In this document: one piece after another, positions 664 through 21,748 of the stretch | Numbering within the stretch: the stretch's first letter is position 1 | Layout: every line of letters starts with the position of its first letter | Assembly: GCA_041651455.1 (NCBI GenBank) | Contig: JBAZJG010000007.1 | Coordinates: forward strand, 2,478-66,477 | Length of the DNA: 64,000 bases | Direction: 5' to 3' | Origin: Candidatus Omnitrophota bacterium | GTDB taxonomy: Bacteria; Omnitrophota; Gorgyraeia; Pluralincolimonadales; Pluralincolimonadaceae | Position numbers and translations under genes: made by a program | Notes under the pieces: generated by a model | Databases searched by the model: none | The model's input: the letters and a program-made list of their open reading frames with translations, nothing else | Told to the model about the DNA's origin: nothing

Positions 664-672
664 TTCATTATT

Positions 673-1018: not shown

Positions 1019-1531
1019 TTACTTGAGAAATGCCAGCAGGGCCCTGACGATCTCCTCCGGCGACGGCGGGCAGCCGGGGATATGCAGATCTACGGGCAGG
1101 ACCTCTTTGACTCCGCCGGTAACATAATACGATCCTTTGAAAACACCGCCTTCCTTCGCGCAATCGCCTAGAGTTATGACGAATTTCGGCTCGGGCATGG
1201 CTTCGTAGGTCTTACGCAACGCGGCGGCCATATTCCTCGATACCGGCCCCGTTACCAACAACGCGTCCGCATGGCGGGGAGAGGCGACAAAGTCGATGCC
1301 AAAACGCTGGATATCATATATCGGGTTCGTCGTCGCGATTATTTCCGATTCACACGCGCCGCAGGAACCCGTATCTACTTCGCGGATATGGAAGGAGCGG
1401 CCAAACCTCTCTTTGATCCTCATCTTCAGTTCGGGACCCATCGCTTCTATTTCAGGAAGCAATTCCTTTCCCGGCTTGATAGGCCTGGTTAACGTCCCTT
1501 TTCTTGATCTTATCCTAAGTATACTTTTCAT
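1019..1531 (-). CDS. NuoB-like [4Fe-4S] small subunit of a group-4 hydrogenase-like / Ehr complex
   Basis: The 170-aa product carries four Cys in hydrogenase small-subunit / NuoB spacing: SCGACESE, GDCAKE and IPGCPP. It is the last gene of a six-gene minus-strand operon. Confidence 0.85.
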   Translation of the reverse strand: MKSILRIRSRKGTLTRPIKPGKELLPEIEAMGPELKMRIKERFGRSFHIREVDTGSCGACESEIIATTNPIYDIQRFGIDFVASPRHADALLVTGPVSRNMAAALRKTYEAMPEPKFVITLGDCAKEGGVFKGSYYVTGGVKEVLPVDLHIPGCPPSPEEIVRALLAFLK

Positions 1532-1542
1532 CGCCTTCTGTC

Positions 1543-3078
1543 CTATAAGTCATTACCGGAATACGATAGGTCGAAACTCTTATTGCATAACGGGAAGTCC
1601 GGGATTATGTTCCCGAGCACTGCGAAACAAAGCCCCTGCCAGTTCCTGAACGACGGGTCCACTATTTTGCAGCGTTCGATGCGTCCGTCCCGGCCCGTCC
1701 TTATCCATAGCAGGAGCGGCCCCCTCCACGCTTCGACGCATCCTATCGAGAAACCCTCTTTCGGCTCCCGCTTTGTTAACGTCTCCGGCGGTTCCGAGAG
1801 GCTGCCTAGCATAGCCGTCAGCTTTTTTATCAGCAAGACAGAGGCGTCGAACTCGTTGAACCGCACATCCAGCCTCGCGAGGACATCCCCGTCCTCCTCA
1901 ATTGCCGGCCTGAAGCCGCAGGCATCGTATATATCACCGTCGAAGACCGTACGCAGGTCGGAGCGGATCCCCGATGCGCGCGCCGCAAGCCCGGTTATCC
2001 CGAGGTCTGCCGCGGTCTTCTTCTTTAATATTCCCGTATTGTCCACCCTGTCCATGAAGGAGATGCTGGAGCGGAGGATCTCTCTTATCTCGCTGATATC
2101 CTTCTGCGCGAGGTCGAGGGACTTGAGCAGTAAAGCTCTTCCCTCGTCCGGAATGTCCGCCGTTACGCCGCCTACCCTGTTGACACCTTTCAGGTACCTG
2201 CTGCCGGTAAGTTTCCCGTTGAGCGCCAGGAGGCCTTCTTTTGCCACAGATGCCAGCGCGTTCGGAAAGCTGAACCCAACATCCGTCGCGATGCCGCCGA
2301 TATCGTTCGCGTGGTTATACATCCTTTCCAGCTCCAGGAAGATCGCCCTGATTATCCTTGCTCTTCCCGGTACCCTCATACCGCATATTTTTTCAACGCC
2401 GGCGCAAAACGCGTAACTGTAGGCAAAAGCGGAATCACCGGCGATCTTCTCCGTCAACGCAACGGCATCGCGCGTGTCCATGCCCTCGAGCATCTTTTCT
2501 ACGCCGCGATGCGTGAATCCCAAACGCGTCTCCAGGTTTATTATCGGTTCGCCGGCCGCGCTGAACCTGAAATGCCCGGGGCCGATGATACCCGCGTGGA
2601 GCGGGCCGACCGGAACCTCGAATATCCCTTCCCCTTCGACCTTCTTGAAACGGTACTCGCTGCGCTCGCCGGGCGCTTTATGACCTGGCGCCGGAGGAGC
2701 GAAATCCTTGCGCAGGGGATAAAATCCCTCGGGCCATATCTCGTCGTGGAGGGCAAGGCGCCTGGAGTCAGGGCTTCCCTCAAAGCATATCCCGAACATT
2801 TCCGCCATCTCACGTTCGAACAAGCTCGCAGAATACATTTCTTTCGCAAGAGACGGCATCCTCGGATCATTTCCGGGAATGTTTGTCCTCACGATCTCCC
2901 ACCTGCCGGCTTTCCTGTCGAGGAACGTGCAATAGATACGGAAATTCCCGCTCTCCTTCCTTAGGTCCTCCGCAAAATACGCCATCACGGGCGATTCAAG
3001 CCGTTTATGCAGGCCGAGGCATTCCTCCGTGAACCGTCCGGGCTCTACGTCTATATATATCTCGTTATTACGTTCCAT
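1543..3078 (-). CDS. NuoC-NuoD fused 'large subunit' homolog (HycE/HyfG-like) that lacks the [NiFe]-binding cysteines
   Basis: The N-terminal NuoC-like region begins MERNNEIYIDV and is followed by a NuoD / hydrogenase large-subunit region (GPLHAGIIGPGHFRF, LGFTHRGVEKM). Where group-4 hydrogenases have R-I-C-G-I-C, this protein has KIAGDSAF, and the C-terminal DPCxxC is replaced by FDLSYSGNDL. The start ATG at 3076-3078 overlaps the upstream gene's stop (ATGA). The ORF track's longer N-terminus is unlikely to be real. Confidence 0.85.
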   Translation of the reverse strand: MERNNEIYIDVEPGRFTEECLGLHKRLESPVMAYFAEDLRKESGNFRIYCTFLDRKAGRWEIVRTNIPGNDPRMPSLAKEMYSASLFEREMAEMFGICFEGSPDSRRLALHDEIWPEGFYPLRKDFAPPAPGHKAPGERSEYRFKKVEGEGIFEVPVGPLHAGIIGPGHFRFSAAGEPIINLETRLGFTHRGVEKMLEGMDTRDAVALTEKIAGDSAFAYSYAFCAGVEKICGMRVPGRARIIRAIFLELERMYNHANDIGGIATDVGFSFPNALASVAKEGLLALNGKLTGSRYLKGVNRVGGVTADIPDEGRALLLKSLDLAQKDISEIREILRSSISFMDRVDNTGILKKKTAADLGITGLAARASGIRSDLRTVFDGDIYDACGFRPAIEEDGDVLARLDVRFNEFDASVLLIKKLTAMLGSLSEPPETLTKREPKEGFSIGCVEAWRGPLLLWIRTGRDGRIERCKIVDPSFRNWQGLCFAVLGNIIPDFPLCNKSFDLSYSGNDL

Positions 3079-4550
3079 CACGCGCCCCTTATTATCTCTG
3101 ATGCGGCCAGCAGCAGGTCCCTGAAAAATCCCGGCGCCGCAAGGCCCATGGCGCATATCAATAATATCAATATTCCGAATGCGAACTTACCGCTCAACGG
3201 CTCCCCCTCGACCGGCATCCCCTCCGGCTTTCCGCCGAAGGCCGACCGGCTGATATTCAACACTATCGCGCTGAATGCGACGGCCATGAACAACAGCAGC
3301 AGCGCCGCCTGAGGCCAAAGGCCCATCTTGAATCCCGCCAGCAATATCATTATCTCGCTGAAGAATGCTGAGAACGGCGGCGAACCGGTCAGCGCAAATA
3401 CGCCGATAATGAGCATCGTGCCGGCAAACGGCATCGCGCTTATTATCCCGCGTATCTCCCGGATGTTGTGCGATCCGTATTTTTTTACCGCACGGCCCGC
3501 TGCGAAGAACATCAGCGATTTCGCGGCAGCATGGTTGAATATATGGAAAAGCGCGCCGTAAATAGCGACGGTCCCGCCGAACCCGAGTCCTGCCGCAATT
3601 ATCCCTATGTTCTCGACGCTGCTGTAAGCAAGCAGGCGTTTTATATCCCTCTGGACGAGCACGAAACCCGCCCCCACGCCGAGCGACACAAGCCCGAAGA
3701 GCATGAACAGGTTTCCGGTATATCCCGTGCCGATGCAGACGTTTGTTATCGTCGCGAACCTAATTATCGCGTAAATAGCCGTCGGCAGCAGTACTCCGGA
3801 GAGCATCGCGCTTATCGGCGCTAGCGCCTGGCTGTGCGCGTCCGGAAGCCATGTATGCATAGGGACGAACCCCGCCTTTGTCCCGTATCCTACGAGTATA
3901 AAAAGGAACGCTACCTTTAGAATCGACGGGTTCAGGCTGCCCGCGACCGCTGCCATGTCGGTCCAGTTCAGCGACGAGATGCCGCCGTCGCGCGAAGCCG
4001 TATAATAGAACAATATAGTGCCGAGCAAGGCAAGAGTGATGCCTACGGAACAGATTATTATATATTTCCAGGCCGCCTCGATCGATTCCTTCCTGTTATA
4101 GAACCCGACGAGGAACGCCGAGACGAGCGTTGTCATCTCTATCGCTACCCATACCATGCCAAGGTTGCTTACCAGCGGCACGCAGAGCATCGACAGCGCG
4201 AAAAGGTTGAAGAGAGCGTAGTAGGCCTTCGCCTTCCTCTCGCTCATTACCCCGTCTTTCACGTCCGCGGAGATATACCCGATCGAATAGAGCGCCGAGA
4301 TCGAATTGATTACCGATATGGTCAAGATAAAAAACGCGCTTAAAATGTCGGCATAGAAGAACCCGAGGAATGACACAGGTTCGCCGGACTTCAGCAACCC
4401 CAGCGCGAGCGTTACTGCAAGCGCCGCGTTGGCGAAATGCCCCGCCGCGTTAAGCACGCCGAATTTCCTGCTCCTGCCGGCTTTTACTCCAGGCAGGACC
4501 GCGATCCCGGCAAGCACGAGAGGTATTAGCAGTATCGGGAATATCTCCAT
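3078..4550 (-). CDS. NuoM/NuoN/MrpD-like antiporter-type membrane subunit (HyfF-like)
   Basis: The 490-aa polytopic membrane protein has conserved motifs of the complex-I antiporter-like family: WLPDAHSQA(L)AP, SAML(S)G and LLAYSSVENIG. Confidence 0.8.
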   Translation of the reverse strand: MEIFPILLIPLVLAGIAVLPGVKAGRSRKFGVLNAAGHFANAALAVTLALGLLKSGEPVSFLGFFYADILSAFFILTISVINSISALYSIGYISADVKDGVMSERKAKAYYALFNLFALSMLCVPLVSNLGMVWVAIEMTTLVSAFLVGFYNRKESIEAAWKYIIICSVGITLALLGTILFYYTASRDGGISSLNWTDMAAVAGSLNPSILKVAFLFILVGYGTKAGFVPMHTWLPDAHSQALAPISAMLSGVLLPTAIYAIIRFATITNVCIGTGYTGNLFMLFGLVSLGVGAGFVLVQRDIKRLLAYSSVENIGIIAAGLGFGGTVAIYGALFHIFNHAAAKSLMFFAAGRAVKKYGSHNIREIRGIISAMPFAGTMLIIGVFALTGSPPFSAFFSEIMILLAGFKMGLWPQAALLLLFMAVAFSAIVLNISRSAFGGKPEGMPVEGEPLSGKFAFGILILLICAMGLAAPGFFRDLLLAASEIIRGA

Positions 4551-4551
4551 A

Positions 4552-5190
4552 TCAGCCCTTCAGTTCCGTAAGTTTGTCCACATCTATGTGCGTGAAAAGC
4601 TTGTTTATCTTGAACACGAACACGCCGAGAATTATTACGACGAGCAAAATGTCGAAGAATATCGCTATCTCGACTATGAACGGCATCCCGCCCGATACGC
4701 TGGCGGCCGCGAGGAACATCCCGTTCTCCATGACAAGAAGTCCTATTATCTGCGCTAGCGCCTTCATCCTCGCCATCATGAGGAAGATACCTATCATCGT
4801 CACCGAGAGAGAGACAAAGAACGCGCTGTTCTCGAACTCCCCGGGCAAAGACAATATCTTTCCGGTAAAAAGGTACGCCATATACGAGAGGAGCACCGCC
4901 GCGAATATGGAGACGGTCGGGTTTGCCGAGAGGCCGAGGTCCTCGTTTACCTTTATCCTGCGGGCGACCCTGCACAGGAAATTCGGCACAAGAACCACCT
5001 TTATCGCGAACAACATCGTCGTAACGAAATACAGCTGGGTGGAATTCTCCCTGAACGCGAGGATGAATGTCAGCAGGAACAGGAAGAACGATTGCGCCCT
5101 GAAACCGAATATCAGCGCGGACATCCTCTTCGCGGCGACCATAGCGAATGCCATCATCAGTATCCCGAAAAGTATCAGCCCTACCGCCAT
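4552..5190 (-). CDS. HyfE-like small membrane subunit (extended NuoK-like)
   Basis: The 212-aa highly hydrophobic protein is similar in size to hydrogenase-4 HyfE. It lies 2 nt from its neighbours. Confidence 0.65.
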   Translation of the reverse strand: MAVGLILFGILMMAFAMVAAKRMSALIFGFRAQSFFLFLLTFILAFRENSTQLYFVTTMLFAIKVVLVPNFLCRVARRIKVNEDLGLSANPTVSIFAAVLLSYMAYLFTGKILSLPGEFENSAFFVSLSVTMIGIFLMMARMKALAQIIGLLVMENGMFLAAASVSGGMPFIVEIAIFFDILLVVIILGVFVFKINKLFTHIDVDKLTELKG

Positions 5191-5191
5191 T

Positions 5192-6067
5192 TTAAAACCC
5201 CATCGCGGAGATGACTACCGCTATTACCGAGAGCACGAATGAAAAACTCATAAGGTCCACTACCCTGAAAAGGCGCATCTTTGCCATCGATACCTCCAGC
5301 ACCGCGACCGCTATCGCTATCGCGGCCATTTTGGCCGCGTAATTGCCGAACGGTATCGCGACCGCCGCGATCACCGAGTAGAACAGCACCTGCTTGATGT
5401 GGGAAGCGAGCTCTATGAGCGCGAGTGAACGCCCGGAATATTCAAGGACCATCGCTTCATGCACCATCGTCAGTTCGAGGTGTGTCTCCCTGTTATCTAC
5501 GGGAATGCGCGATGTCTCCGCAAGGGTAACCACGAAGAGCGCGCCCGCCGCCACGAGCGATGATAGCTTCAGTGTTTCCACAGACGCGACCGCCCGAGGC
5601 GTCGTCGATCCGGCTGCCAACGATACGGCGAATACGGCAAGCAGGACGACCGGTTCCACCAAGCTCGATATGAACATTTCCCTCGACGAGCCCATGCCCC
5701 CGAAGGAACTTCCCGCATCGAGCCCGGCAAGCGCGATGAAGAACCTCCCGAGCGCAAGCAGGAAAACGAGCGCAACTAGGTCTCCCGCGCTGTCAAATGA
5801 TATGCCCGGGCCGAATGCCGGTATCATGAACAGCGCCGCAAGTACGGTGCCCAGGACGATATACGGAGTGCATGTGAATACCCACGATGTGTCTCGCGAC
5901 ACCGCCTCTTCCTTGCGGAGCAATTTCGCGAGGTCATAATAAGGCTGGAATACGCCGGGGCCCTTCCTGAGCCTTATGAAGTTCTTCAGCTTCCTTATAA
6001 ACCCGGTTACCAGCGGCGACACGGCTATAAGCACCAGCGCCTGCAATATGACCAATGGATCCCTCAT
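5192..6067 (-). CDS. NuoH/HycD/HyfC-like membrane subunit
   Basis: The 291-aa product contains LIRKLKNFIRLRKGPGVFQPYYDLAKLL, which matches the NuoH/HycD conserved N-terminal motif (RKGP...QP..D..KL). Confidence 0.8.
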   Translation of the reverse strand: MRDPLVILQALVLIAVSPLVTGFIRKLKNFIRLRKGPGVFQPYYDLAKLLRKEEAVSRDTSWVFTCTPYIVLGTVLAALFMIPAFGPGISFDSAGDLVALVFLLALGRFFIALAGLDAGSSFGGMGSSREMFISSLVEPVVLLAVFAVSLAAGSTTPRAVASVETLKLSSLVAAGALFVVTLAETSRIPVDNRETHLELTMVHEAMVLEYSGRSLALIELASHIKQVLFYSVIAAVAIPFGNYAAKMAAIAIAVAVLEVSMAKMRLFRVVDLMSFSFVLSVIAVVISAMGF

Positions 6068-7854
6068 CAGAACCTTCCCATGAATATCACGAGCAACACT
6101 ATCGTCACGAATATATACGCCACGTAAACATGTATGCTGCCCGGCTGTATCTTCTTGAGCTTCCTCGCTGCGATGAACAATAAACTTACCGCGGGCGCGT
6201 AGATATATTTCCTGAAGACCGGCGTCGTGAAAACCTCATATTTGAACGACCGGACATGGTAGAACGAGTCCCTTATCTTTTCGGTCTTGCTGTAGGGCAT
6301 CAGGAAGAAACTGAAAGCTATTCGAAGCGGCTTCGAAAACGCGGTCGCGCTGTATTCATTCCGCGGGCTGAGCTTGTAATACCCGCAATCCCACGTATTG
6401 CACTCGGCGGCTCTCCTGTTCCTCGCTGCATAGCAGCAGGACGCGGCGAACACCAACACTGCGGCGGCTATCCAATTCGTCTTAATAAAGAATGATATCG
6501 GCGCCTCACCGGCCGGCACCCCCATAGCGAAACCCGCTATTACCGAGATATATTTTACCGCGAACGGCGCTCCGAGGCCCAATGCCAGTGCCATCAACGC
6601 CAGGAACGCCATCGGCGCTTTCATCGATAACGGCACTTCCTGCGCCGACTGGGCCGCTTTGCTCCTGGGTACTGCGAGGAACGTTATGCCGAACGCCTTG
6701 ACAAAGCACGCGGCGGCCAGCCCTCCCGTGAGCGCAAGCAGCGCCGCGCATACGCAAAGGAATATCTTATAGCTGCCGCCCGAATTGACCGCTCCGTAAA
6801 AGAACGCCTGCAGCGTCAGCCATTCGCTAACGAACCCGTTGAATGGCGGCAGGCCGGATATCGCTATCGATCCAGCGAGGAACACCGCCGCCGTGACGGG
6901 CATCTTCTTTATGAGCCCGCCGAGGTGCTCGATGTTGCGCGTTCCGGTCGCCTTATATACCGCGCCCGCGCCGAGGAAAAGCAATCCCTTGAATACAGCG
7001 TGGTTCAGCAGGTGGAATAGCCCGGCGCAAAGCGCCATTACCGCGAGCGCCGGCATGCCCATCTTCATGAATACCATCGACGCGCCGAGGCCGAGCATTA
7101 TTATTCCCATGTTCTCTACGCTGGAATAGGCAAGGAGTTTCTTAAGGTCCTGCTCCATCAGGGCATACATTATGCCGGCAAGGCACGACACGAGCGCTAG
7201 AACCAGCACGAGGTTGCCCCACCATTGGGGCCCGATACCGAGCGTCAGGAAAACGAACCTTAACAGGCCGTATACGGCGGTCTTGATCATCACGCCCGAC
7301 ATTATGCTCGAGATATGGCTTGGCGCCTGCGGGTGGGCGTACGGGAGCCAGACGTGCAGGGGCACGATCCCGGCCTTTGTCCCGAAACCTATGAGGAATA
7401 ATATGAAAATTATGTCTTTTATGTTTGCCGGTATCGATGCGGACGCAGCCTTCATCGCTGCGATATCGAATGAGCCCGCGTAATTGGACATTATAAGGAG
7501 GGCTGCCGTCATGAACGCCGTGCCGATATGGGTCATCACGATGTATATCGTGCCGGCCATTACGGACCTTTCATGCCGGTGGTCGATGACAACGAGGAAA
7601 TACGAGGCCAGCGACATCAGTTCCCACGCGACTAGAAAGACCAGCGCGTTCCCCGACGTGACGACGAGCGCCATGGACAGCACGAATGCCGCCAGGAGCG
7701 CCCATAGCAATGCCTTCTTTCCCCTGCCGTACTCTCCTCTCATATACCCGACCGAATATATTGCGGCCGGCGCCGAGACGAGAAGTATCACAAAAAGGAA
7801 AAATAAAGACAAAGGATCTGTCAGTAAAGTGTAATTAACACCTAATAGTTGCAT
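6067..7854 (-). CDS. NuoL/HycC/HyfB-like antiporter-type membrane subunit; first gene of the operon
   Basis: The 595-aa product contains WLPYAHPQAPSHISSIMSG and LLAYSSVENMG, antiporter-like family motifs. The stop/start overlaps the next gene at 6067. Confidence 0.8.
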   Translation of the reverse strand: MQLLGVNYTLLTDPLSLFFLFVILLVSAPAAIYSVGYMRGEYGRGKKALLWALLAAFVLSMALVVTSGNALVFLVAWELMSLASYFLVVIDHRHERSVMAGTIYIVMTHIGTAFMTAALLIMSNYAGSFDIAAMKAASASIPANIKDIIFILFLIGFGTKAGIVPLHVWLPYAHPQAPSHISSIMSGVMIKTAVYGLLRFVFLTLGIGPQWWGNLVLVLALVSCLAGIMYALMEQDLKKLLAYSSVENMGIIMLGLGASMVFMKMGMPALAVMALCAGLFHLLNHAVFKGLLFLGAGAVYKATGTRNIEHLGGLIKKMPVTAAVFLAGSIAISGLPPFNGFVSEWLTLQAFFYGAVNSGGSYKIFLCVCAALLALTGGLAAACFVKAFGITFLAVPRSKAAQSAQEVPLSMKAPMAFLALMALALGLGAPFAVKYISVIAGFAMGVPAGEAPISFFIKTNWIAAAVLVFAASCCYAARNRRAAECNTWDCGYYKLSPRNEYSATAFSKPLRIAFSFFLMPYSKTEKIRDSFYHVRSFKYEVFTTPVFRKYIYAPAVSLLFIAARKLKKIQPGSIHVYVAYIFVTIVLLVIFMGRF

Positions 7855-7894
7855 CTTTCCTTGCTTTTTTTGGTTATTTAATAGATGGGATTAT

Positions 7895-7932
7895 ATTATA
7901 GGACGTGCCGGCCTGTTTGTCAAGCCGGCACG
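7895..7932 (-). promoter_or_regulatory. Consensus sigma70 promoter (TTGACA-17-TATAAT) for the Ehr-like operon, with an inverted repeat (CGTGCCGGC...GCCGGCACG) over the -35 element and spacer
   Basis: The minus-strand reading is cTTGACAaacaggccggcacgtccTATAATat. The -35 lies at plus 7918-7923 and the -10 at 7895-7900, giving a leader of about 35 nt to the ATG at 7854. A 9-bp GC-rich inverted repeat at 7904-7932 overlaps the promoter and is a possible operator. Confidence 0.5.
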
Positions 7933-7960
7933 GTATTGCGGCCCTGTTTATTCTACGCCT

Positions 7961-8359
7961 TTAATTGCACTTTATCGGCGATCCGTCATCCTGCACTGGG
8001 GCAGGCCCCTTCATGCCGCCCTTCATCATCGGGCACGGCATCTTGCCTTCATTCATCATTCCGCCCATACCTTGCTTCATCCCGCGCATTCCCTGCATAT
8101 CGCCCCTCATGCCCCCCATCATGGGGCGCTTATCCTGCATGTTACCCATCATCGGGCATGAAATCGGGCTGGCTCCGGTAACCAGTATCGATATACCGGC
8201 TACCGCGATGACCAACGCTACCGTAATGAGCACCGCGCCTACGAATTTCCCGAACGACTTTACCTTTTCCGGAGCTTTCTCCGCCGTCAATAAGACAAAA
8301 TAGCTTACCGCCAGCAGGAGGCTCATCCACATAAGTGTTATTATCCCTACTAATGCCAT
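7961..8359 (-). CDS. Small membrane-anchored methionine/glycine-rich protein (possible soft-metal binding)
   Basis: The 132-aa product has two predicted TM helices, then PMMGNMQDKRPMMGGMRGDMQGMRGMKQGMGGMMNEGKMPCPMMKGGMKG, which contains 12 MxxM/MxM-type motifs and 3 Cys. A strong SD (AAGGAGGGCAAGGAG) directly precedes the ATG, and the start lies 16 nt after the hcp stop. The overlapping plus-strand ORF 7965-8303 is Pro-rich and has no recognisable features. Confidence 0.5.
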   Translation of the reverse strand: MALVGIITLMWMSLLLAVSYFVLLTAEKAPEKVKSFGKFVGAVLITVALVIAVAGISILVTGASPISCPMMGNMQDKRPMMGGMRGDMQGMRGMKQGMGGMMNEGKMPCPMMKGGMKGPAPVQDDGSPIKCN

Positions 8360-8375
8360 CTCCTTGCCCTCCTTG

Positions 8376-10043
8376 TTATCCCAGTATCGCCTTCAGGTCG
8401 GCATCTGGGGTTGTTATCGGCTTGACCCCGAACTGTTCTACCAGCACCTTAAGCACGTTTTGCGAAGTGAACGCCGGCAACGACGGGCCTATCCGTATGT
8501 TCTTTACACCGAGCGAGAGCAGCGTTATGAGTATGCAGACCGCTTTCTGCTCGTACCATGAAAGCACCAGCGACAGCGGCAGGTCGTTCACGCCGCATTT
8601 GAACGCGTCCGCGAGTGCCAGCGCGATCTTGACCGCCGAGTAGGCATCGTTGCACTGCCCTACATCCAGCAGGCGCGGGATGCCTCCGATATTCCCGAAC
8701 TCCAGCGCGTTGAAACGGAACTTGCCGCATGCAAGTGTCAGTATTACGCAATCCTGCGGGACCTTCTCCGCGAGCTCGGTGTAATAATTGCGGCCGAACT
8801 TCGCGCCGTCGCATCCGCCGATCAGGAAGAAATGGCGTATCTTCTTCCCCTTTACCGCTTCGATGACCTTATCGGCTACGCCGAGAACCGCGTTGTGCCC
8901 GAAACCGACGAGTATCTCCTTTTGTATATTATCCTGCGGGAACCCTCCGAGTTCAAGCGCCTTTTTTACCACAGGCGCGAAGTCCTTTTTGTCGAACCCG
9001 GGGATGTGCGCCACTCCGGGCCACGCGACGAGGCCGGTCGTAAAAACCTGCGCCTTGTATGAATCGCGGGGCTTCTGGATGCAGTTAGTCGTGAACAGGA
9101 ACGCCGCCGGGACCCCCTCGAACTCTTTCTGCTGGTTCTGCCACGCCGTCCCGAAATGCCCGGCCAGGTGCTTGTACTTATTCAGCGCGGGATAACCGTG
9201 CGCGGGAAGCATCTCGCCGTGAGTATAGATGTTTATGCCCTTCCCCTCCGTCTGCCGGAGCAGCAGTTCGAGGTCGAGAAGGTCGTGGCCGGTCACGATT
9301 ATTGCCGGGCCCTTCTTAACTCCCAGCTTGACCGCGGTGGGTACCGGGTTGCCGAAGTGCCCCGTATTCGCCTTGTCCAGGAGCTCGAGGCATTTGAAAT
9401 TGACCTTGCCGAATTCCATGTTCATCGCGAGGAGCTCTTCAACGGAAAGGTTGTCTTCGGCGAGTTTCGCGAGCGCCTTATAAAAATATGAATTTACCTC
9501 TTCGTCTTCGAGGCCGAGCACCGACGCGTGGTCGGCATAGGCGGCCATGCCCTTCAACCCGTAAAGCAGGAGCTCCTGCAAGCTGCGCGCGTCTTCATCC
9601 TTCGCGGGCCACGCATGGACTCCTACCTGTTTGCCCTGATCAACGAGGCCTGCCGCACTGTCAGCGGGCTTCCAGTCGGCGGGAGCGGGCAGCTTTCCCG
9701 TAAAATCCTTGCCGTGCTGTTTCTTGTAGGCCTGCAGGAAGAGGCGCTTAACCTTCTCCTTTATCTCATACGCCCGGTTAAGGTATTGCGTGAGCCGTTC
9801 CGGGTCGAAATTAACGTTCGTGACTGTCGTGAAAAGGCCTTCTTTCACGAACAGGTCGACTTCCTTATCCCTTACTGCCAGTTCTCGCGCCATATTGCCG
9901 TAAACGGCGATGCCCTTCAACGCATATATAAGAAGGTCCTGCAATATTGCGGTTTCGGACGTTTTCCCGCACACACCTTGCGCTGTACAACCCGTACCCT
10001 GCGCGGTCTGCTCACACTGCCTGCAAAACATCTTGTTATCCAT
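8376..10043 (-). CDS. hcp: Hybrid cluster protein (hydroxylamine reductase)
   Basis: The N-terminus MFCRQCEQTAQGTGCT..GVCGK is the Hcp hybrid-cluster Cys motif. The 555-aa length also fits. Confidence 0.93.
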   Translation of the reverse strand: MDNKMFCRQCEQTAQGTGCTAQGVCGKTSETAILQDLLIYALKGIAVYGNMARELAVRDKEVDLFVKEGLFTTVTNVNFDPERLTQYLNRAYEIKEKVKRLFLQAYKKQHGKDFTGKLPAPADWKPADSAAGLVDQGKQVGVHAWPAKDEDARSLQELLLYGLKGMAAYADHASVLGLEDEEVNSYFYKALAKLAEDNLSVEELLAMNMEFGKVNFKCLELLDKANTGHFGNPVPTAVKLGVKKGPAIIVTGHDLLDLELLLRQTEGKGINIYTHGEMLPAHGYPALNKYKHLAGHFGTAWQNQQKEFEGVPAAFLFTTNCIQKPRDSYKAQVFTTGLVAWPGVAHIPGFDKKDFAPVVKKALELGGFPQDNIQKEILVGFGHNAVLGVADKVIEAVKGKKIRHFFLIGGCDGAKFGRNYYTELAEKVPQDCVILTLACGKFRFNALEFGNIGGIPRLLDVGQCNDAYSAVKIALALADAFKCGVNDLPLSLVLSWYEQKAVCILITLLSLGVKNIRIGPSLPAFTSQNVLKVLVEQFGVKPITTPDADLKAILG

Positions 10044-10455
10044 GTAGTATCTCCTTTATTGTCACGCCATTTAACTGCGCGACCGCGAACTCCTCGATCG
10101 CTTCCAATCTCTTCCTCAGGAAGCACGCCTTCCTGTTGGGGCATACCTTCCGCTTGAACATGCACTCATTGAGTTTGAACGGCCCCTGGAATATTTCCAT
10201 GACTTCGGTGATAAAAATCCTCTCCGGCGTCTTTGCGAGCCTGAACCCGCCTCCTTTGCCTTTCTGCGACATAAGAAGCTTTGCCGCATTCAGCTTCTGG
10301 AGTATCTTCCTCATGAACGGCCTGGGCATCCCTAACTCTTTTACGAGTTCCGTGACGGTAATAATACCGCCCTTCTCTTTCTTATCGCGCGCCGCCATGT
10401 AACACAGCGCCCTTACCGCGTAATCCGTGTTCCTCGTCACCAGTTTCGTGCTCAT
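10036..10455 (-). CDS. Rrf2-family transcriptional regulator (NsrR/IscR-like) with a Cys triad
   Basis: An N-terminal wHTH (YAVRALCYMA) and a C-terminal NECMFKRKVCPNRKAC motif (three Cys, Fe-S ligands) are present. The gene overlaps the hcp start by 8 nt. Confidence 0.85.
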   Translation of the reverse strand: MSTKLVTRNTDYAVRALCYMAARDKKEKGGIITVTELVKELGMPRPFMRKILQKLNAAKLLMSQKGKGGGFRLAKTPERIFITEVMEIFQGPFKLNECMFKRKVCPNRKACFLRKRLEAIEEFAVAQLNGVTIKEILHG

Positions 10456-10460
10456 GGCTT

Positions 10461-10489
10461 AATGATACCATATTGGTATCTTTTGTCAA
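10461..10489 (-). promoter_or_regulatory. Promoter (TTGACA-16-TATCAT) for the rrf2-hcp unit, containing the 17-bp perfect palindrome GATACCAATATGGTATC (NsrR-like operator)
   Basis: The minus strand reads TTGACAaaaGATACCAATATGGTATCATtaagccATG. The palindrome (plus 10464-10480) fills the spacer. Its half-sites AAGATAC..GTATCATT resemble the NsrR consensus AAGATGC..GCATCTT. The -10 lies about 6 nt from the ATG, so the Rrf2 mRNA may be leaderless. Confidence 0.45.
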
Positions 10490-10539: not shown

Positions 10540-11106
10540 CTATTCCTCCCCTAACCTGCGGCTAAGGTAGCCACCGGTAAGGCCGTCTATCGTTGCGGTG
10601 AGTTCTTCTATGCGGAACTCCCTTTCGAGGTATGAGGCGCTTTCCTTATCCTGGATCTTCCCAAGCTGTTTTTGGATCTTTTTTCGCTCGAAGTATGCGG
10701 CGTTAAGGTCGTTTAGGATATCGTTTCTTAGCTGGACCATCAGCTTGGAGCGGGAGTCGATGGAAGTCTGGGCGCTGTTGTAGACGAGATCTCCTAAGTC
10801 CCACTTGGCGGTAAAGTCCCAGCTGCTGCTGGTGTCATCCGGACCTATGTAATAGTTGGTCTTACCGGAAAGCGTGGCTGCGGTAACAGTTGCGTCGATA
10901 TCGTTGCCGTATCCAACGCTTATCTCGGGGAGTAGGGCCTTCATTGCAGCTTGCTTGCGCCAGGTTGAGATCTTGTCCGGGCTGACCTCTGCATACTTTA
11001 TGGCGGCCTTCTGGAGCTCCTGGATGGTGGGCTCTTCCTGCGCCTTGGCCTGTATCGGTAGGAATAGAACTATACCTATTATGACTGCAGGTGCTATACG
11101 TCTCAT
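10540..11106 (-). CDS. Hypothetical secreted protein with a single TolC/OEP-like repeat
   Basis: A signal peptide MRRIAPAVIIGIVLFLPIQAKA is present. The segment TIQELQKAAIKYAEVSPDK...ALLPEISVGYG resembles one repeat of outer-membrane efflux proteins. GC content is lower than in the flanking genes. Confidence 0.4.
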   Translation of the reverse strand: MRRIAPAVIIGIVLFLPIQAKAQEEPTIQELQKAAIKYAEVSPDKISTWRKQAAMKALLPEISVGYGNDIDATVTAATLSGKTNYYIGPDDTSSSWDFTAKWDLGDLVYNSAQTSIDSRSKLMVQLRNDILNDLNAAYFERKKIQKQLGKIQDKESASYLEREFRIEELTATIDGLTGGYLSRRLGEE

Positions 11107-11166
11107 TCTTCTTATCTCCTTTCTGAGGTAATAGACGTAGATTATGAGGAAATTCTTTCAATTATC

Positions 11167-12069
11167 TTATCTTGACCGCTGTTCTTCCCATTCCCTGTAT
11201 CCGGGATAGACAGGGCCCAGTTCTTCGACCTCCCCAGCCTCAAGGTTGCGCAAACCATCGGGTTGGATATAGTAATCAAAACCATTCCTTTGCAGACGCA
11301 TCTTTCCATACTTTCCATTCGGAGTTATGAAATAACAATAAACATCTCCGTTGTCCTGCTTTCTATAATAATCATCCCACTTTATTGTGCTGACATAACC
11401 CGATTCCGGGGCTTCAGTCATCCATTCATATTTAGCATAATAATAATTTGATTCGATTTTATGTTTAGGATAACCTTTATAATAGACAAAGCCGCCCGGC
11501 TCTTTCATCGTATAAACAATCTCATCTTTGTCATTATATGTTCGTGTTAACCATACGGTATCGTCCTCATCAACAGGGAAGTACCATAATTTATTGAATG
11601 ACCATCCGTATTTCTTGTCTTCTGAAAACATATGGTATGGCACAAATGTATCAACATGCTGAAGCCTAGAAGGAACTCCCTTCTTGACGAGCCGGATCAT
11701 TAAATCTTTCGCGATTATCTTACCGCCTTTCTCGTATTCAGATAATTCTACCACATCCCCATGATATCCTTCCTTAGATGCTCTGATTGTGCAAAATGTT
11801 GCATCCGGCAGTTTCCAATCATACGTGCCATTGTAAAATACCTTCTCGTTCGTCTTTTTATCGGATGTAATTTCATCGTAAAATTTGCTTCTAACTACAT
11901 CCGGATATGTCACATTTTCAAGCTCGGCAATAAGGGTAACTTCGCTTGTGATCAGACTCCCATTCTGATCAACGATCTTGCCCGAGATTTCAATCTCGTT
12001 CAGAAATTGAAAAGCATACGTATAATTTCCAAATAGTACAAGAATTCCCATAACCACATATTTGTACAT
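11167..12069 (-). CDS. Hypothetical secreted protein (AT-rich island)
   Basis: The 300-aa product has signal peptide MYKYVVMGILVLFGNYTYA and an N-terminal CarbD_reg-like stretch (ISGKIVDQNGSLITSEV). It is rich in Tyr, Lys, Asp and Glu. The gene starts 1 nt after the stop of the 1060-aa gene. Confidence 0.45.
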   Translation of the reverse strand: MYKYVVMGILVLFGNYTYAFQFLNEIEISGKIVDQNGSLITSEVTLIAELENVTYPDVVRSKFYDEITSDKKTNEKVFYNGTYDWKLPDATFCTIRASKEGYHGDVVELSEYEKGGKIIAKDLMIRLVKKGVPSRLQHVDTFVPYHMFSEDKKYGWSFNKLWYFPVDEDDTVWLTRTYNDKDEIVYTMKEPGGFVYYKGYPKHKIESNYYYAKYEWMTEAPESGYVSTIKWDDYYRKQDNGDVYCYFITPNGKYGKMRLQRNGFDYYIQPDGLRNLEAGEVEELGPVYPGYREWEEQRSR

Positions 12070-12070
12070 A

Positions 12071-15000
12071 TTACCTCCTTATCAATATGTTTTTTAAAAT
12101 TAATGTATCATAATATTCAACTACATCATAATAATACTCATTTCCAATACTTAAATGATCGCGAATACCGTAAGGATGAACAGTATTTGGACCATATCGA
12201 ATGCTATCAAAATTTGATATTTTAGATTTTATGTCCTGGCCTCCTAATCCTCCCGATTTACTTATTTCAAATCTGTATCCACCCACATTTAAATAATCAT
12301 ACATATCATGTATAGGAAGCAGTATATACTCATCGTCTAAGGGCACCGGTAATCCGTATTTCCCTAATATACCGGACCACCATACTCCTTCCAGATCCCG
12401 CTTGAAAAGATCGATTATTTTGTCACCTCTATAATATAAGTTGTACATGATGCCTGTGATATTATTTTCTATCGAGGGCACATACATGTCCTTATAATAA
12501 TCTATTTCGGGTCTACTCGCATATGCGTTGCCTGGCACGGCTACCTGTGCCAGGAATACGTTATCAACTAATCCTTTCTTCCCTTGCGTTGCCAATAAGC
12601 GGAGAGCATATGAAATAAGATTTCCTCCTAACGAATGGGCAAGAATATTTATTCTGGCATTCTTGTATTCGCTTTTAGTATCCTCTATTATGTCGGCTAG
12701 AACCTGTCCGGTCTGAAATGAATTTACCCACTGATTATCGAATAACATTTTTGGATTATCAAGCCCACCGAGTCCCTCTTCAGTATCCCACGAAAACCCG
12801 ATAAAGCCACCTCTATAACCGGACCAATATAGACGTTTATATATTGTATTATTCCACTCGATTGCACTCTTCTTTGGCGTCCAAGCGCCGTGTATGAACA
12901 TTATTATTGAGGATGGATCCTTCATAAACATATCGTGTTTTTCTACACTTATATTGCGGTACCTCAGCTGTCCATCCATGTCAATGCTTGTGCCGCCCCT
13001 AACATCTACGAATCTATACATATCCCTTACATTTTTCACAGTAATATATACTTCGTCTAATATGATTTCTTCCTTCTTTTTACCATTGCTGAATTCTACC
13101 GCAAGTATAACCTTTAGCCGGCCGGGCTCCACCCCCTCAAATAGTGCGCAAAAGTCACCGTTATCATCGAAATATTTGGGATCAAGCTCTTTTTGATCTT
13201 TTGCAGAAAGGTTAAGAACAACTGTCTTTCTGTATTGTTCGATTGATGAATTTAGATCTTTCAGGTAAGTAAAATACATTAAATCCTTTAAATCTTTTAC
13301 TCTTTCAAATAATTTTATTCTGCCTGTTCCCTCTGCATTTAATTTATATTTTATTCCCTTATCCTGGCCTATCCATTCTTTGATATTCGGTACTGATATA
13401 TTAATCGGCATAAAATCTTCTAAATCGCGGATACCGTTTATGTTCCCATCGGCGCTGTCATTGCCCTTGCTATTTACTGCATCTTTATCATCCTGATGAA
13501 CCGGAGAATCGTCATAATCGTCATCATCATTCACCCAAAACACGCACCCGGGCTCGTTTTGCTCGACGGCGTTGTCCTCGCCGCCGAGGAAGCCGTCGTT
13601 GTTGGAGTCGATTAGGATATCGCCAGTAATACCGTATTCTACGTTCGCACAAAATAGCCTGGTGACGGGACCTGGACTAGAGGCAAATCCTGGATATAAA
13701 GGAGCGTCTATAACTAGTTGGAAATCTTTATCGGGATTATCGTTATCAAATACTACATATGTATGCAATGGCTTACACAGGTTCAGCGGCTCTTTCTTAA
13801 TAAGAGGTTCGGACAAGTACCCCATGCTTATCCCATTTGCCTTATATCTGCTAACATCTAAAGGCACATTCCACCAATTCTTGTCCATCCAAAACATATT
13901 AGATGTCTCAATAAACCAGCAATCTTTAAATATGATCGTATACTTATTTGTTTGTTTGGGTGGGCTGTGCAAGGTCATATTAATAGTATCCTCCCTTGTG
14001 GCTCCGTCCTGTACGTTAAAAAGACTGTCATGAAGAAAGAAGCCCCCTGCTATCCAAGGATAACTACCTATCGAATAATATGCTGTTCCTCTATCGTAAT
14101 AATTGTAGCGGCCGTGGTTGTTTTGATGGGTGTTAGTTGAATATATGGGGAATATGTCCCTCGTATCGTATTTTACATCTGCCCATCCTGCAAACGGTGA
14201 TTCTTGAAGAAAATCAGAATTATATGCGTCGGTATTATAATAATCATAATCCTCTGGTACTATCACGTATTCGCCCGTAAGCGGACTTAATACGGATCTT
14301 TCCACGTGTGTCCTGTTATTAGTGGATGAATACACAAATAACTGATAGTAGTTGTAAACTATCCTGTCCTCATAGGACTTTCCCGTATCCAAAGTAACTT
14401 TAACTTTTAGTATATTTTCCCCCGAATGCGTATTAGGGTCTACCCTCATCAGTATGTATTTGGGCGAATCAGCATTGACGTTATATTCTCTGGCTTTGCC
14501 CGGGCAGATGAGCATTGGACCTTCAAATGTTCCCGCCGGCTTGTTGAGTGCGCAGGGCTGGCCGTTGACGGTAATCGAGGTTATGCCTGCATTTAAATTG
14601 AATCTACCGCCTATCTTTAATTCCTTTTCGGTAATTACCTGGCCGGAGTACGGGGAACTGAATACAACGTCCTGATCTTTCCCCTTCTGGAGCTCCTTTG
14701 GTTGCTCTATCCGGCGTTCTGTCCGTGTTGAAAGCTTCTTCTTCGGAGGCGCCGTATAGCCTTCCGCTGCCGCGCCTACATCAACAACAGGCCCATCGGA
14801 TATCCTGCCGCCTCCCTGCATTGGCCCGCCCGGCTCTGAATATACCGAATACGACACCAGCCTCCTCCTACCGTTTGTATCTGCCATTGATATAAGGAAG
14901 GTATTAAGGCCTTCTTTTAACTGCAGGCGGCTGAATTCAAAGTTATTATCCTCTATTCTCGCTTCCGTTCCCTTGATGCTTACAGATTTTATCTGGAAAT

Positions 15001-15253
15001 CAGGCATAACCTTGCCTTTAAGGGTGAGATGGTCATCGCGGATGACAGAGAACTGCACGGGGGAAATAGATTTGAAGCCGACCGGGAGGTTTAGGTCTAT
15101 ATTAATGCCCCCGTGGGCGTTTGAAGGAATAAAAAAAGGCGTCATAATCGCCAGAAATACATACAGTATTAAATGTTTGATCTTCATATTTACCATTAAG
15201 TTGCCTGTTCTTCGAAACATGATTATTTTACCTCCCCTATATATACATGTCAA
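12071..15253 (-). CDS. Large secreted multidomain protein with a C-terminal alpha/beta-hydrolase (lipase/esterase-like) domain
   Basis: The 1060-aa product has a signal peptide (MKIKHLILYVFLAIMTPFFIPSNAHG; the true start is probably the internal Met near 15187). An acidic Asp-rich, Ca-binding-like segment reads DSNNDGFLGGEDN...NDDDDYDD. The C-terminal domain has IIMFIHGAW...NILAHSLGGNL, which is a GHSLGG serine-nucleophile elbow. The gene is markedly lower in GC than the flanks. Confidence 0.55.
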   Translation of the reverse strand: MTCIYRGGKIIMFRRTGNLMVNMKIKHLILYVFLAIMTPFFIPSNAHGGINIDLNLPVGFKSISPVQFSVIRDDHLTLKGKVMPDFQIKSVSIKGTEARIEDNNFEFSRLQLKEGLNTFLISMADTNGRRRLVSYSVYSEPGGPMQGGGRISDGPVVDVGAAAEGYTAPPKKKLSTRTERRIEQPKELQKGKDQDVVFSSPYSGQVITEKELKIGGRFNLNAGITSITVNGQPCALNKPAGTFEGPMLICPGKAREYNVNADSPKYILMRVDPNTHSGENILKVKVTLDTGKSYEDRIVYNYYQLFVYSSTNNRTHVERSVLSPLTGEYVIVPEDYDYYNTDAYNSDFLQESPFAGWADVKYDTRDIFPIYSTNTHQNNHGRYNYYDRGTAYYSIGSYPWIAGGFFLHDSLFNVQDGATREDTINMTLHSPPKQTNKYTIIFKDCWFIETSNMFWMDKNWWNVPLDVSRYKANGISMGYLSEPLIKKEPLNLCKPLHTYVVFDNDNPDKDFQLVIDAPLYPGFASSPGPVTRLFCANVEYGITGDILIDSNNDGFLGGEDNAVEQNEPGCVFWVNDDDDYDDSPVHQDDKDAVNSKGNDSADGNINGIRDLEDFMPINISVPNIKEWIGQDKGIKYKLNAEGTGRIKLFERVKDLKDLMYFTYLKDLNSSIEQYRKTVVLNLSAKDQKELDPKYFDDNGDFCALFEGVEPGRLKVILAVEFSNGKKKEEIILDEVYITVKNVRDMYRFVDVRGGTSIDMDGQLRYRNISVEKHDMFMKDPSSIIMFIHGAWTPKKSAIEWNNTIYKRLYWSGYRGGFIGFSWDTEEGLGGLDNPKMLFDNQWVNSFQTGQVLADIIEDTKSEYKNARINILAHSLGGNLISYALRLLATQGKKGLVDNVFLAQVAVPGNAYASRPEIDYYKDMYVPSIENNITGIMYNLYYRGDKIIDLFKRDLEGVWWSGILGKYGLPVPLDDEYILLPIHDMYDYLNVGGYRFEISKSGGLGGQDIKSKISNFDSIRYGPNTVHPYGIRDHLSIGNEYYYDVVEYYDTLILKNILIRR

Positions 15254-15404: not shown

Positions 15405-15941
15405 ATGGGAAGAAAAGTATCAGCGATAGTATTTTGCCTTTTTTTAGTCCTTTCCTTCGACACGTTTTTATCAGTCGCACACGCTGATTTCAACGTCTAT
15501 ACAGTAGCTAATTCGGGCAGCATTTCACCGAAGACATCGTTCAGTTATGATGAGATTCCGTGGCTCTACATTGAAGTACCCGGTTTCAGCGGATATCCGG
15601 GAATGTACCCCAGGATGACGATATCGGCAGGATGGATGTACCAGGGCGAACCGCCTTCTATAACCGTGAATGGGTTCGACCAGGAATTTTATCCGAATGG
15701 TTTCCAGAATACGTGGATACAGCTGAGCGAGTGGGATTCCGTCAAACAGGTAGGTGCGTGGGATATTGCCGCGACTTACTCTATATATACCCTGAACGGA
15801 TATACCCCGAACTTCATCGCGAACGGGACAGATTTCTCGAGTTTTGAGGTAACTCCTATACCCGAGCCGACCTCCCTTATGCTTCTCGGCAGCGGCCTCA
15901 TAGGCATTTTCGGAACATTCCGCCGCAAGTTCAAGCGATAG
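15405..15941 (+). CDS. PEP-CTERM sorting-domain protein (exosortase substrate)
   Basis: An N-terminal signal peptide is present. The C-terminus is VTPIPEPTSLMLLGSGLIGIFGTFRRKFKR: a PEP motif, a hydrophobic helix and a basic tail. The ATG at 15405 has GGGGG 9 nt upstream. The ORF-track start at 15396 is a TTG. Confidence 0.7.
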   Translation: MGRKVSAIVFCLFLVLSFDTFLSVAHADFNVYTVANSGSISPKTSFSYDEIPWLYIEVPGFSGYPGMYPRMTISAGWMYQGEPPSITVNGFDQEFYPNGFQNTWIQLSEWDSVKQVGAWDIAATYSIYTLNGYTPNFIANGTDFSSFEVTPIPEPTSLMLLGSGLIGIFGTFRRKFKR

Positions 15942-19620: not shown

Positions 19621-19872
19621 TTATTTTCCCTTGTGAAGCGCCGACTTGACCGAGACCCCCTTTATGAGGCCGAGCCGGCCTGTCAGCGCGCCGATATCGT
19701 CGGTTGTCGCGTCGACGATGATGGTTATGACCGAGCAGTTCCTTTCCTTATACGGTATGCCCATCCTGCCCTGTATAATGCTCCCGAACTCCGACAGGAC
19801 CTTGTTTACCTCCGCCGCCTGGTTGTTCCTGTCCGTGATGATTATTCCCATGAATCCCAATCTCTTGTCCAT
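19621..19872 (-). CDS. Small ACT-like protein of the TM1266-type 'iron-only hydrogenase system regulator' family
   Basis: An 83-aa product from the ATG at 19870-19872 (MDKRLGFMGIIITDR...) has GGGAGG 6 nt upstream. This small protein lies between hydA and hydF, as is typical for this family. The ORF-track start at 19893 is a TTG. Confidence 0.55.
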   Translation of the reverse strand: MDKRLGFMGIIITDRNNQAAEVNKVLSEFGSIIQGRMGIPYKERNCSVITIIVDATTDDIGALTGRLGLIKGVSVKSALHKGK

Positions 19873-19879
19873 CGTAACC

Positions 19880-19921: not shown

Positions 19922-19993
19922 TGGTATTCTTCCCTGGCCCCTTGGCTTTAGACGCTGCCCCCGTCCTTACCGCAGGTATGTAATACTAAAACA

Positions 19994-21745: not shown

Positions 21746-21748
21746 TTT

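Follow-up and report, generated by a model that had tools for sequence, protein, structure and literature searches.

Why does a gene for a small, methionine (Met)-rich membrane protein stand directly behind the gene for the hybrid cluster protein, Hcp, in a Candidatus Omnitrophota genome? The question arises from the window analyzed here, a stretch of 64,000 nt (GenBank assembly GCA_041651455.1, contig JBAZJG010000007.1, positions 2,478 to 66,477 of the forward strand), and from one gene in it, which we call X. A sequence-only reading of the window had pointed out the gene and had proposed that its product handles a soft metal or serves as a Met sink for oxidants beside Hcp. We find that X represents an Omnitrophota-centered protein family, and its gene contexts firmly place this family in the operons with which strict anaerobes would defend themselves against O2, superoxide, peroxide, and NO.

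Gene X and its family

The gene and its translation start signal lie as follows.

7961 to 8359, minus strand: gene X, from the open reading frame (ORF) list; ATG start, 132 amino acids (aa), stop codon at 7961-7963
8368 to 8374, minus strand: Shine-Dalgarno sequence AAGGAGG, 8 nt from the X ATG and inside the hcp-X spacer

These coordinates bear out that a 132-aa ORF begins 16 nt past the hcp stop codon (TAA, 8376-8378) and that a near-perfect Shine-Dalgarno sequence precedes it. The spacer reads CAAGGAGGGCAAGGAG, and a spacing of 16-17 nt between hcp and X recurs in loci L001-L004 and L009. The sequence-only reading went further and called X translationally coupled to hcp; this does not follow, since X has a Shine-Dalgarno sequence of its own and a 16-nt spacer.

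Two ORFs on the plus strand, at 7885-8181 and 7965-8303, overlap X, and they lend some color to the view that X is a chance ORF, a Met-rich low-complexity artifact of an antisense frame that yields no functional protein. Codon comparison speaks against this view. In the X frame, the ratio of nonsynonymous to synonymous substitution rates (dN/dS) was 0.02-0.3 against five homologues (pairwise, over the ungapped 54-codon transmembrane (TM) domain), with dS from 0.5 to more than 1. These values show that the minus-strand frame is under purifying selection and that it is the X frame, as had been supposed, that is translated; the plus-strand ORFs are dismissed. Furthermore, the Shine-Dalgarno sequence and the operon position are conserved, and Met has a single codon, with 16 ATG per 70 codons lying beyond what base composition accounts for. 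Together with a conserved gene context and 155 family representatives of common architecture, the dN/dS values exclude a spurious ORF, a reading to which we give practically no credence. X is thus confirmed, from codon-level comparison, as a real gene under constraint.

The family is large. A profile search over 1.84 billion representatives (cut-off E ≤ 1e-3) returned those 155 cluster representatives, 11 of them at E ≤ 1e-10, with lengths of 57-178 aa; broadly, the family is one of 80-140-aa proteins. A 'hypothetical protein' encoded in a Candidatus Omnitrophota metagenome-assembled genome (MAG) matches X with 100% identity, and there are 14 further close homologues. The homologue search that had been suggested for the 132-aa protein therefore found conserved relatives, 15 close ones and 155 profile matches. 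Species-level loci were collected by scanning for the pattern of the first TM helix (TM1) with a trimmed TM domain and keeping one genome per GTDB species. This gave 42 loci, nearly all from Candidatus Omnitrophota MAGs; a minority are labeled uncultured Planctomycetales, Spirochaetes, Firestonebacteria, or just 'bacterium'. The contigs of two very distant representatives, P0149 and P0072, are too short or too full of transposases to inform on gene context.

Searches of Pfam and NCBIfam with X and 54 family members gave nothing above threshold. DUF4199, MARVEL, and MerT appeared as sub-threshold matches to TM composition and were rejected. A profile search of the PDB found no relative, matches to acetylcholine-receptor TM segments (E ≥ 0.014) being spurious, and our literature search found no description of the X family or of any membrane protein of hcp/sor/rd/fdp operons. 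The family is undescribed: it has no curated family entry, no solved structure, and no description in the literature searched.

The protein has three parts, and the DNA that encodes the last of them contains a short repeat.

8279 to 8356, minus strand: TM1, residues 2-27, with the signature MSLLLAVSYFVL; a helix in the AlphaFold2 (AF2) model, predicted local distance difference test (pLDDT) ~80
8180 to 8269, minus strand: second TM helix (TM2), residues 31-60, preceded by the basic loop EKAPEKVKSFGK; a helix in the AF2 model, pLDDT ~80
7964 to 8179, minus strand: Met/Gly/Lys-rich tail, residues 61-132, with two Cys-Pro-Met-Met motifs (C68, C109) and the C-terminal SPIKCN
8056 to 8096, minus strand: 21-nt tandem duplication in the tail-coding DNA (Tandem Repeats Finder (TRF): period 21, 2 copies, 80% match)

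The AF2 model, built with a 54-sequence alignment, agrees with the proposed arrangement of two TM helices followed by a Met-rich tail: the helices form a hairpin, and the tail is predicted to be disordered (pLDDT ~50, without secondary structure). Among the close homologues, the first 66 residues are nearly invariant, with M12-A17 and Y20-V22 as invariant columns, and K28, K34, and G37 of the loop are invariant or almost so. In the family as a whole, TM1 carries the signature LLLT[VI]SFFVL, of which S, F, F, V, and L are invariant in the TM-domain alignment. It is followed by a basic loop, (R/K)K.E...LK.FG, by a TM2 that ends in TG, often by [H/C]-P-M-M, and then by the Met-rich tail. Family N-termini are rich in Met and Cys.

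Operon context and the predicted Rrf2 operator

In the window, X follows two genes and stands between two promoter-like sites.

8376 to 10043, minus strand: hcp, hybrid cluster protein, 555 aa (NF003658 hydroxylamine reductase, E = 1e-248; PF03063 Prismane, E = 4e-172)
10036 to 10455, minus strand: Rrf2-family regulator, 139 aa, with an 8-nt overlap with the hcp start (PF02082, E = 8e-29; TIGR00738)
10462 to 10489, minus strand: promoter of rrf2-hcp-X, TTGACA-16-TATCAT with an extended TG, 11/12 match to consensus
10464 to 10480, no strand assigned: 17-bp palindrome GATACCATATTGGTATC, probable Rrf2 operator, between -35 and -10 and overlapping -10
7895 to 7923, minus strand: promoter of the hydrogenase operon, TTGACA-17-TATAAT, 12/12 match to consensus, past the X stop and ahead of a group-4 [NiFe] hydrogenase

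The NCBIfam and Pfam matches leave the upstream gene as hcp, as first read. The regulator matches the NsrR, IscR, and RirA models weakly and carries C-x7-C-x5-C, a spacing typical of Fe-S-binding Rrf2 regulators. Because promoter-like sites were found only upstream of rrf2 and downstream of X, rrf2, hcp, and X are likely co-transcribed, and the separate hydrogenase promoter therefore makes X the last gene of this predicted unit.

The palindrome GATACCATATTGGTATC has its sole perfect copy in the window at this promoter. Of the 42 species loci, 23 have exactly one match each to the pattern GATAC-N7-GTATC, which is present in the window, in L001-L004, and in L008 as well; about 0.5 chance matches would be expected in 558 kb, an estimate from its 10 fixed bases. 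It always heads a co-directional string of genes that runs from Rrf2 to X. In L028, X itself leads the operon and is preceded, at 77 nt, by the same kind of promoter/operator module (TTGACAAATGATACTTTTATGGTATCAT), again with TTGACA-16-TATCAT. The palindrome is probably the Rrf2 operator, and these sequence patterns argue strongly that X belongs to the regulon of the island Rrf2.

What else does this regulon hold? We called ORFs in the 42 distant loci and clustered the neighbors, whose identities were confirmed by Pfam. A typical island begins with Rrf2, a 4Fe-4S protein (276 aa), a Cys-rich 76-aa protein, Hcp (~430 aa), and superoxide reductase (SOR; 131 aa), and continues, in some cases after ferritin, with X, rubredoxin, a redoxin/Tpx protein, an FNR-like FAD/NAD reductase, and the flavodiiron protein (FDP). 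Past FDP, it ends with PNPOx-like, glutaredoxin, and TrxR-like proteins. Genes for rubrerythrin-like proteins, NifU, NifS, SufBD, and VIT1 (a VIT1-type iron transporter) are often nearby. At least two detoxification families lie within 7 kb of X in 26 of the 42 species loci. Directly upstream of X we found SOR in 10 of the 42 loci, ferritin in 3, and Hcp in 3; directly downstream, rubredoxin in 15. Median gaps to co-directional neighbors are 43 nt upstream and 18 nt downstream.

The order rrf2-hcp-X is thus conserved, in the close sub-family as well as in distant members of the phylum. The link between hcp and X that the sequence-only reading had stressed is real, but it is not specific, as SOR and rubredoxin are the more usual neighbors. 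Three layouts occur among the close relatives: rrf2-hcp-X-[group-4 NiFe hydrogenase]-abrB-TolC (the window and L001-L004); rrf2-hcp-X-abrB-TolC-MacA-MacB (L008, L009); and [hydrogenase]-X-abrB (L005, L010, L011), in which X follows the small subunit of the [NiFe] hydrogenase. As the third layout has no hcp, this gene is not an obligate neighbor of X, even among close relatives.

Two further associations were considered and rejected. A general tie between X and the [NiFe] hydrogenase fails because hydrogenase genes occur in only 1 of the 42 loci and because the hydrogenase operon of the window has its own consensus promoter. A tie to the AbrB/TolC/MacAB efflux genes is confined to the close sub-family; the gap there is at least 150 nt, the efflux genes have their own regulator, and they are not Cus-like.

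In the window genome, the defense genes are scattered. A 1Fe SOR (Desulfoferrodoxin family, 128 aa) is encoded at 32814-33197 on the minus strand, 25 kb from rrf2-hcp-X. No GATAC-N7-GTATC operator was found at this gene, and no rubredoxin or flavodiiron gene was found in the 64-kb window. The detoxification island is contiguous elsewhere in Omnitrophota and dispersed here.

Several other features surround the genes discussed so far. The hydrogenase promoter lies inside a palindrome (7895-7933, minus strand) with 9-bp arms, CGTGCCGGC...GCCGGCACG, which may be an operator or may serve at the same time as the hairpin that terminates rrf2-hcp-X. The operon behind it (1019-7854, minus strand) comprises six genes of a group-4 membrane-bound [NiFe] hydrogenase: a NuoL-like, a NuoH-like, a 212-aa membrane, and a NuoM/N-like protein, a fused 30K/49K large subunit, and a NuoB-like small subunit. 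Past it, at 673-912 and 1-672 (minus strand), is an AbrB-family regulator region, in which the AbrB gene was the one checked. In L008 (5084-8101) and L009, X has downstream of it AbrB and then TolC-, MacA-, and MacB-like efflux genes, and the AbrB gene by itself is seen where the contig or locus ends in L001-L004 and L010. The L008 AbrB orthologue has a weak NCBIfam match to 'HgcAB-associated protein HgcC' (E = 3e-11, below cut-off).

Upstream of the rrf2 promoter, at 10540-15253 (minus strand), are genes for a 188-aa secreted protein with a weak OEP-like match and for 300-aa and 1060-aa proteins with faint domain matches; the 188-aa and 300-aa families also precede rrf2 in L008 and L009. A few kilobases upstream of rrf2-hcp-X lies a bifurcating-type [FeFe] hydrogenase locus (15931-23500, minus strand), with the HydE, HydG, and HydF maturases, HydA (583 aa, Fer2/Fer4 domains), and a NuoF-like subunit of 583 aa. 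Among the distant loci, the Cys-rich 76-aa protein between the Fer4 protein and Hcp (L016, 4418-4648; orthologues in 17 of the 42 loci) looks like a zinc ribbon and had no Pfam match, making it a second uncharacterized member of the island. L041 has two X-like genes (134 and 213 aa; one at ~7001-7400, the other ~2.6 kb downstream), which flank an 850-aa gene on the opposite strand, outside a detoxification context.

The Met-rich tail and what it may do

The tail of X (SPISCPMMGNMQDKRPMMGGMRGDMQGMRGMKQGMGGMMNEGKMPCPMMKGGMKGPAPVQDDGSPIKCN, residues 63-132, 70 aa) contains 16 Met, 14 Gly, and 3 Cys (C68, C109, and C131), in keeping with the earlier count of roughly one Met in four residues and three Cys. 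At 23% Met, it is the Met maximum per 70 aa among 373 stop-free segments of at least 70 aa in six frames over the whole window; the runner-up has 9 Met, and the background Met fraction is 2%. Family tails vary in length and sequence and average M 19.4%, G 12.2%, K 11.2%, P 9.1%, Q 7.4%, C 3.9%, and H 3.3%, with Met at 15% or above in 125 of 165, ~24% charged residues, and a net charge of ~+4. Judged by these sequences, composition is the conserved trait of a tail that is fast-evolving, basic, and, as predicted, intrinsically disordered. Among close homologues, the tails differ by in-frame blocks of the GM(R/K)G type and keep CPMM and KMPCPMMKGGM; the 21-nt tandem duplication at 8056-8096 suggests how such variation in length likely originates.

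X has no n-region/AxA-type signal that would indicate a cleavable signal peptide. The positive-inside count is balanced, with 3.2 K+R in the 12-aa loop versus 3.1 in the N-terminus and the initial 20 residues of the tail taken together. These observations support a membrane-anchored protein with a Met-rich tail, and the charge balance favors neither side of the membrane for that tail.

Could the tail bind a soft metal? The sequence-only reading saw in its MxM, MxxM, and MMxxM units the hallmark of Cu(I)/Ag(I) sites. Five MxxM and seven MxxxM are indeed present, together with four MM and two CP, both as CPMM; the MxM part of the claim falls away, as the tail has none. In its fuller form, this explanation makes X a buffer, chaperone, or channel whose tail and post-TM2 [H/C]-P-M-M bind Cu(I), Ag(I), or another thiophilic metal, either shielding the Fe-S and non-heme-iron enzymes of the island or passing the metal through the membrane by way of a hairpin oligomer, like a miniature Ctr1. 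The Fe-S enzymes of anaerobes are particularly vulnerable to Cu(I). The richness of family tails in Met, Cys, and His is compatible with such a role, as are the His or Cys and two Met right after TM2 ([CH]PMM in 52 of 165 tails), the Met/Cys-rich N-termini, which would share the membrane side of the tail, and the strongly conserved TM helices, which would allow oligomerization.

Homology and context point the other way. Neither X nor the 54 members showed homology to CopA, PcoC, CusF, CueO, or another Cu/Ag family, and no cop/cus, HMA, P1B-ATPase, or CusF-type motifs were found in 53 loci or the window. The neighboring efflux genes are TolC/MacA/MacB-like, stand at least 150 nt away, and have an AbrB regulator of their own; the regulator of the X operon is of the Rrf2 Fe-S type, not CsoR, CueR, or CopY. 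Spacing adds to this: over 133 non-redundant tails, Met pairs at distance 2 (MxM) are rarer than in within-tail shuffles (z = -8.2), and pairs at distance 3 (MxxM) are about as frequent as in the shuffles (z = 0.5). The motifs therefore lose their standing as a hallmark. What speaks for copper or silver is composition, and we consider that idea, and the soft-metal role at large, unlikely.

The same analysis found Met-Met distances 1, 4, 5, 8, and 9 enriched (z = 7-9.5). This suggests the period of an amphipathic helix with a Met face, unlike the MxM/MxxM of periplasmic Cu(I) sites. For P0060, a typical member, AF2 predicts a short helix (PMMYMMQQM) immediately past TM2; in the window sub-family, the tail has more Gly and Pro and is predicted to be fully disordered. 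The ends of the tails carry motifs of their own. SPIKC[NQ] marks the C-terminus in the window sub-clade, and C.GNKG[IV][IV].K[AT]E ends the protein in 11 loci (L016, L019, L025, L026, L033, L034, L037, L043, L044, L049, and L050), with CxxC just ahead of it in L026, L044, and L049. We take CxxC plus C.GNKG to resemble the rubredoxin/desulforedoxin knuckle KCxxCGN[IV]VEV. In eight of the 11 loci there is also a SOR gene from cluster c13; the 131-aa representative of that cluster has the Desulfoferrodoxin domain only.

Such order in the tail invites a second explanation, in which the hairpin is a specific membrane partner and the tail a flexible tether that uses its Met-lined amphipathic helix and its short C-terminal motif to bind soluble Hcp, SOR, or rubredoxin, or the membrane surface. 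The detoxification enzymes would then be brought to the membrane, or X would be a redox switch in which Met oxidation makes the helix polar and releases it. The nearly invariant TM1, the helical Met periodicity, the predicted helix past TM2 in the typical member, both C-terminal motifs (the second with SOR in 8 of its 11 loci), and the tight operon spacing with SOR and rubredoxin all agree with docking or switching. Against it, no candidate partner is singled out, the direct neighbors vary among Hcp, SOR, ferritin, hydrogenase, and unrelated genes, and the Gly/Pro-rich tail of the window sub-family is predicted to lack a helix altogether. We regard docking or switching as improbable.

Iron offers a third alternative. 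CP occurs in 85 of the 165 tails and [CH]P[MILV][MILV] in 70, and the window protein has two CPMM, which, as Cys-Pro-hydrophobic, presumably resemble heme regulatory motifs. The island encodes ferritin, a VIT1-type iron transporter, NifU, NifS, and SufBD, and nearly all of its proteins are iron proteins, so a CPMM-bearing tail could be imagined to bind heme or Fe transiently, supplying or sequestering iron under stress. A thioether is a poor ligand for non-heme Fe, however, and many members carry HP or neither motif rather than CP. Genes for making or importing heme did not turn up in the loci, which were not searched for them systematically. This role seems very unlikely.

The explanation we prefer, tentatively and as one that falls somewhat short of probable, is by analogy with MrpX, a periplasmic Met-rich peptide: the tail of X would be a membrane-tethered sacrificial trap for oxidants, built of Met and Cys. 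O2 or NO would inactivate the Fe-S Rrf2 repressor, and X would then be made alongside Hcp, SOR, rubredoxin, FDP, and peroxiredoxin. The two-TM hairpin would hold the Met/Cys-rich tail at the membrane surface, where the post-TM2 stretch [H/C]-P-M-M-x-x-M-M may tend toward a Met-lined amphipathic helix. Thioethers and thiols would sacrificially trap oxidants that escape the soluble enzymes, with peroxynitrite, NO2/N2O3 from the lipid phase, hypohalous acids, and lipid-derived oxidants as candidates, and thiol-dependent reductases, with genes elsewhere in the genome, would restore the oxidized residues. Of the earlier suggestion of a Met sink, the setting is borne out: SOR, rubredoxin, FDP, peroxiredoxin, and Hcp stand with X under one predicted Rrf2 operator. 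The function itself stays a proposal.

A number of observations count against an oxidant trap. No MsrA GCFW or MsrB RYC[IV]N motifs were found in a motif search of 53 loci and the 64-kb window; the one window match to a loose MsrP/YedY pattern falls in a stop-free stretch without annotation. The glutaredoxin and TrxR-like pair of the island, which might be thought to recycle the tail, would be equally well explained as reductants of the adjacent peroxiredoxin, for which the Cp34/Cp9/Cp20 system of Clostridium pasteurianum reportedly offers a model. H2O2, which SOR produces, oxidizes free Met slowly. TM1 is conserved far beyond the needs of an anchor, which hints at specific protein contacts, and the sub-clade motifs SPIKC[NQ] and C.GNKG[IV][IV].K likewise hint at contacts rather than bulk chemistry. 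The spacing of Met is ordered and not random (distances 1, 4, 5, 8, and 9), charge counts place the tail on neither side of the membrane, and 16 of the 42 species loci have unrelated housekeeping neighbors and no detoxification genes. It is because of the lack of Msr motifs nearby, the alternative explanation of the glutaredoxin and TrxR-like proteins, the slow reaction of Met with H2O2, and the signs of specific interactions that we hold the sacrificial-trap reading no more firmly.

A wider version would see in X a class of Met-lined peptides, tethered to the membrane and centered on Omnitrophota, that give an otherwise soluble anaerobic detoxification its membrane arm. Held by the conserved hairpin, the interfacial Met/Cys helix of X would intercept lipid-phase oxidants and nitrosants (NO2/N2O3 from NO and O2, peroxynitrite, and lipid radicals) and would act as a recycled redox buffer or as an oxidation-triggered switch that recruits or releases Hcp, SOR, and rubredoxin. 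We see this as a rather doubtful extension.

Place among known defense systems

The nearest counterpart, compared by description, is MrpX, a member of the SigF/NrsF regulon that is found with YedYZ/MsrPQ in Azospira suillum and also in uropathogenic Escherichia coli (UPEC) and Brucella (PMC4436054). It has 20% Met and 44% charged residues, is induced and sacrificially oxidized by reactive chlorine, and is recycled by YedY/MsrP (PMC4436054). X shares with it a small, largely unstructured Met-rich segment, with family tails at 19.4% Met and the window tail at 23%, and a predicted co-regulation with oxidant-stress genes, through the operator and promoter common to Hcp, SOR, rubredoxin, and FDP. 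The differences are several. MrpX is soluble and has a signal peptide, whereas X is a conserved two-TM hairpin with no cleavable signal; MrpX is encoded beside its reductase YedY, whereas no MsrA/MsrB motif lies near X; and charged residues make up ~24% of X tails versus 44% of MrpX. The MrpX regulon deals with reactive chlorine in aerobes and perchlorate reducers; X goes with anaerobe-type O2/NO enzymes and an Rrf2 operator.

The Met-motif binders of Cu(I)/Ag(I) (CopA/CueO inserts, PcoC/CopC, CusF, PcoE/SilE, and the Ctr1 ectodomain) are, like the X tail, flexible and rich in Met, with MxxM/MxxxM, and we take the MQGM, MRGM, and MGGM units of the window tail to resemble the MQGM repeats of Pseudomonas CopA. 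Unlike them, X lacks homology to these proteins and copper neighbors, is depleted in MxM, and is under another type of regulator. The mercury transporters MerF, MerT, and MerE resemble X in size, helical hairpin, and sulfur ligands at the membrane boundary. X, however, has no vicinal Cys pairs in its TM helices and no mer genes nearby, and MerT matched 2 of 54 members, below threshold (E = 0.007).

In soluble enzymes and operon layout, the islands match the rbo-rub-roo and PerR-type oxidative stress operons of strict anaerobes (Desulfovibrio, Clostridium), in which SOR, rubredoxin, a reductase, and FDP occur with Hcp and peroxiredoxin. Omnitrophota differ in that they insert a Met-rich membrane protein between SOR and rubredoxin and set a predicted Rrf2 operator over the whole unit. 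To our knowledge, a membrane protein is absent from the rbo-rub-roo and PerR-type operons.

Scavenger peptides and metal binders rich in Met are kinds of protein that were known before. New in X are the conserved hairpin anchor, the predicted Rrf2 control, the setting among iron enzymes of the anaerobe type, and the near-restriction to Omnitrophota. Against O2 and NO, strict anaerobes are described as relying on soluble iron enzymes: SOR, rubredoxin, FDP, rubrerythrin, and Hcp. We know of no membrane component that has been described for this defense. Our findings add to the soluble set a conserved membrane protein, predicted to be co-regulated with it, across a whole uncultured phylum, and they supply a predicted Rrf2 operator and regulon for Omnitrophota. 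The tail is also a small target of 50-70 residues that can be synthesized to set the copper and oxidant hypotheses against each other. If it proves to be sacrificial or switchable, the principle of MrpX would hold not only in the periplasm of aerobes but also at the membrane of anaerobes, and would reach a new class of regulator and possibly nitrosative chemistry.

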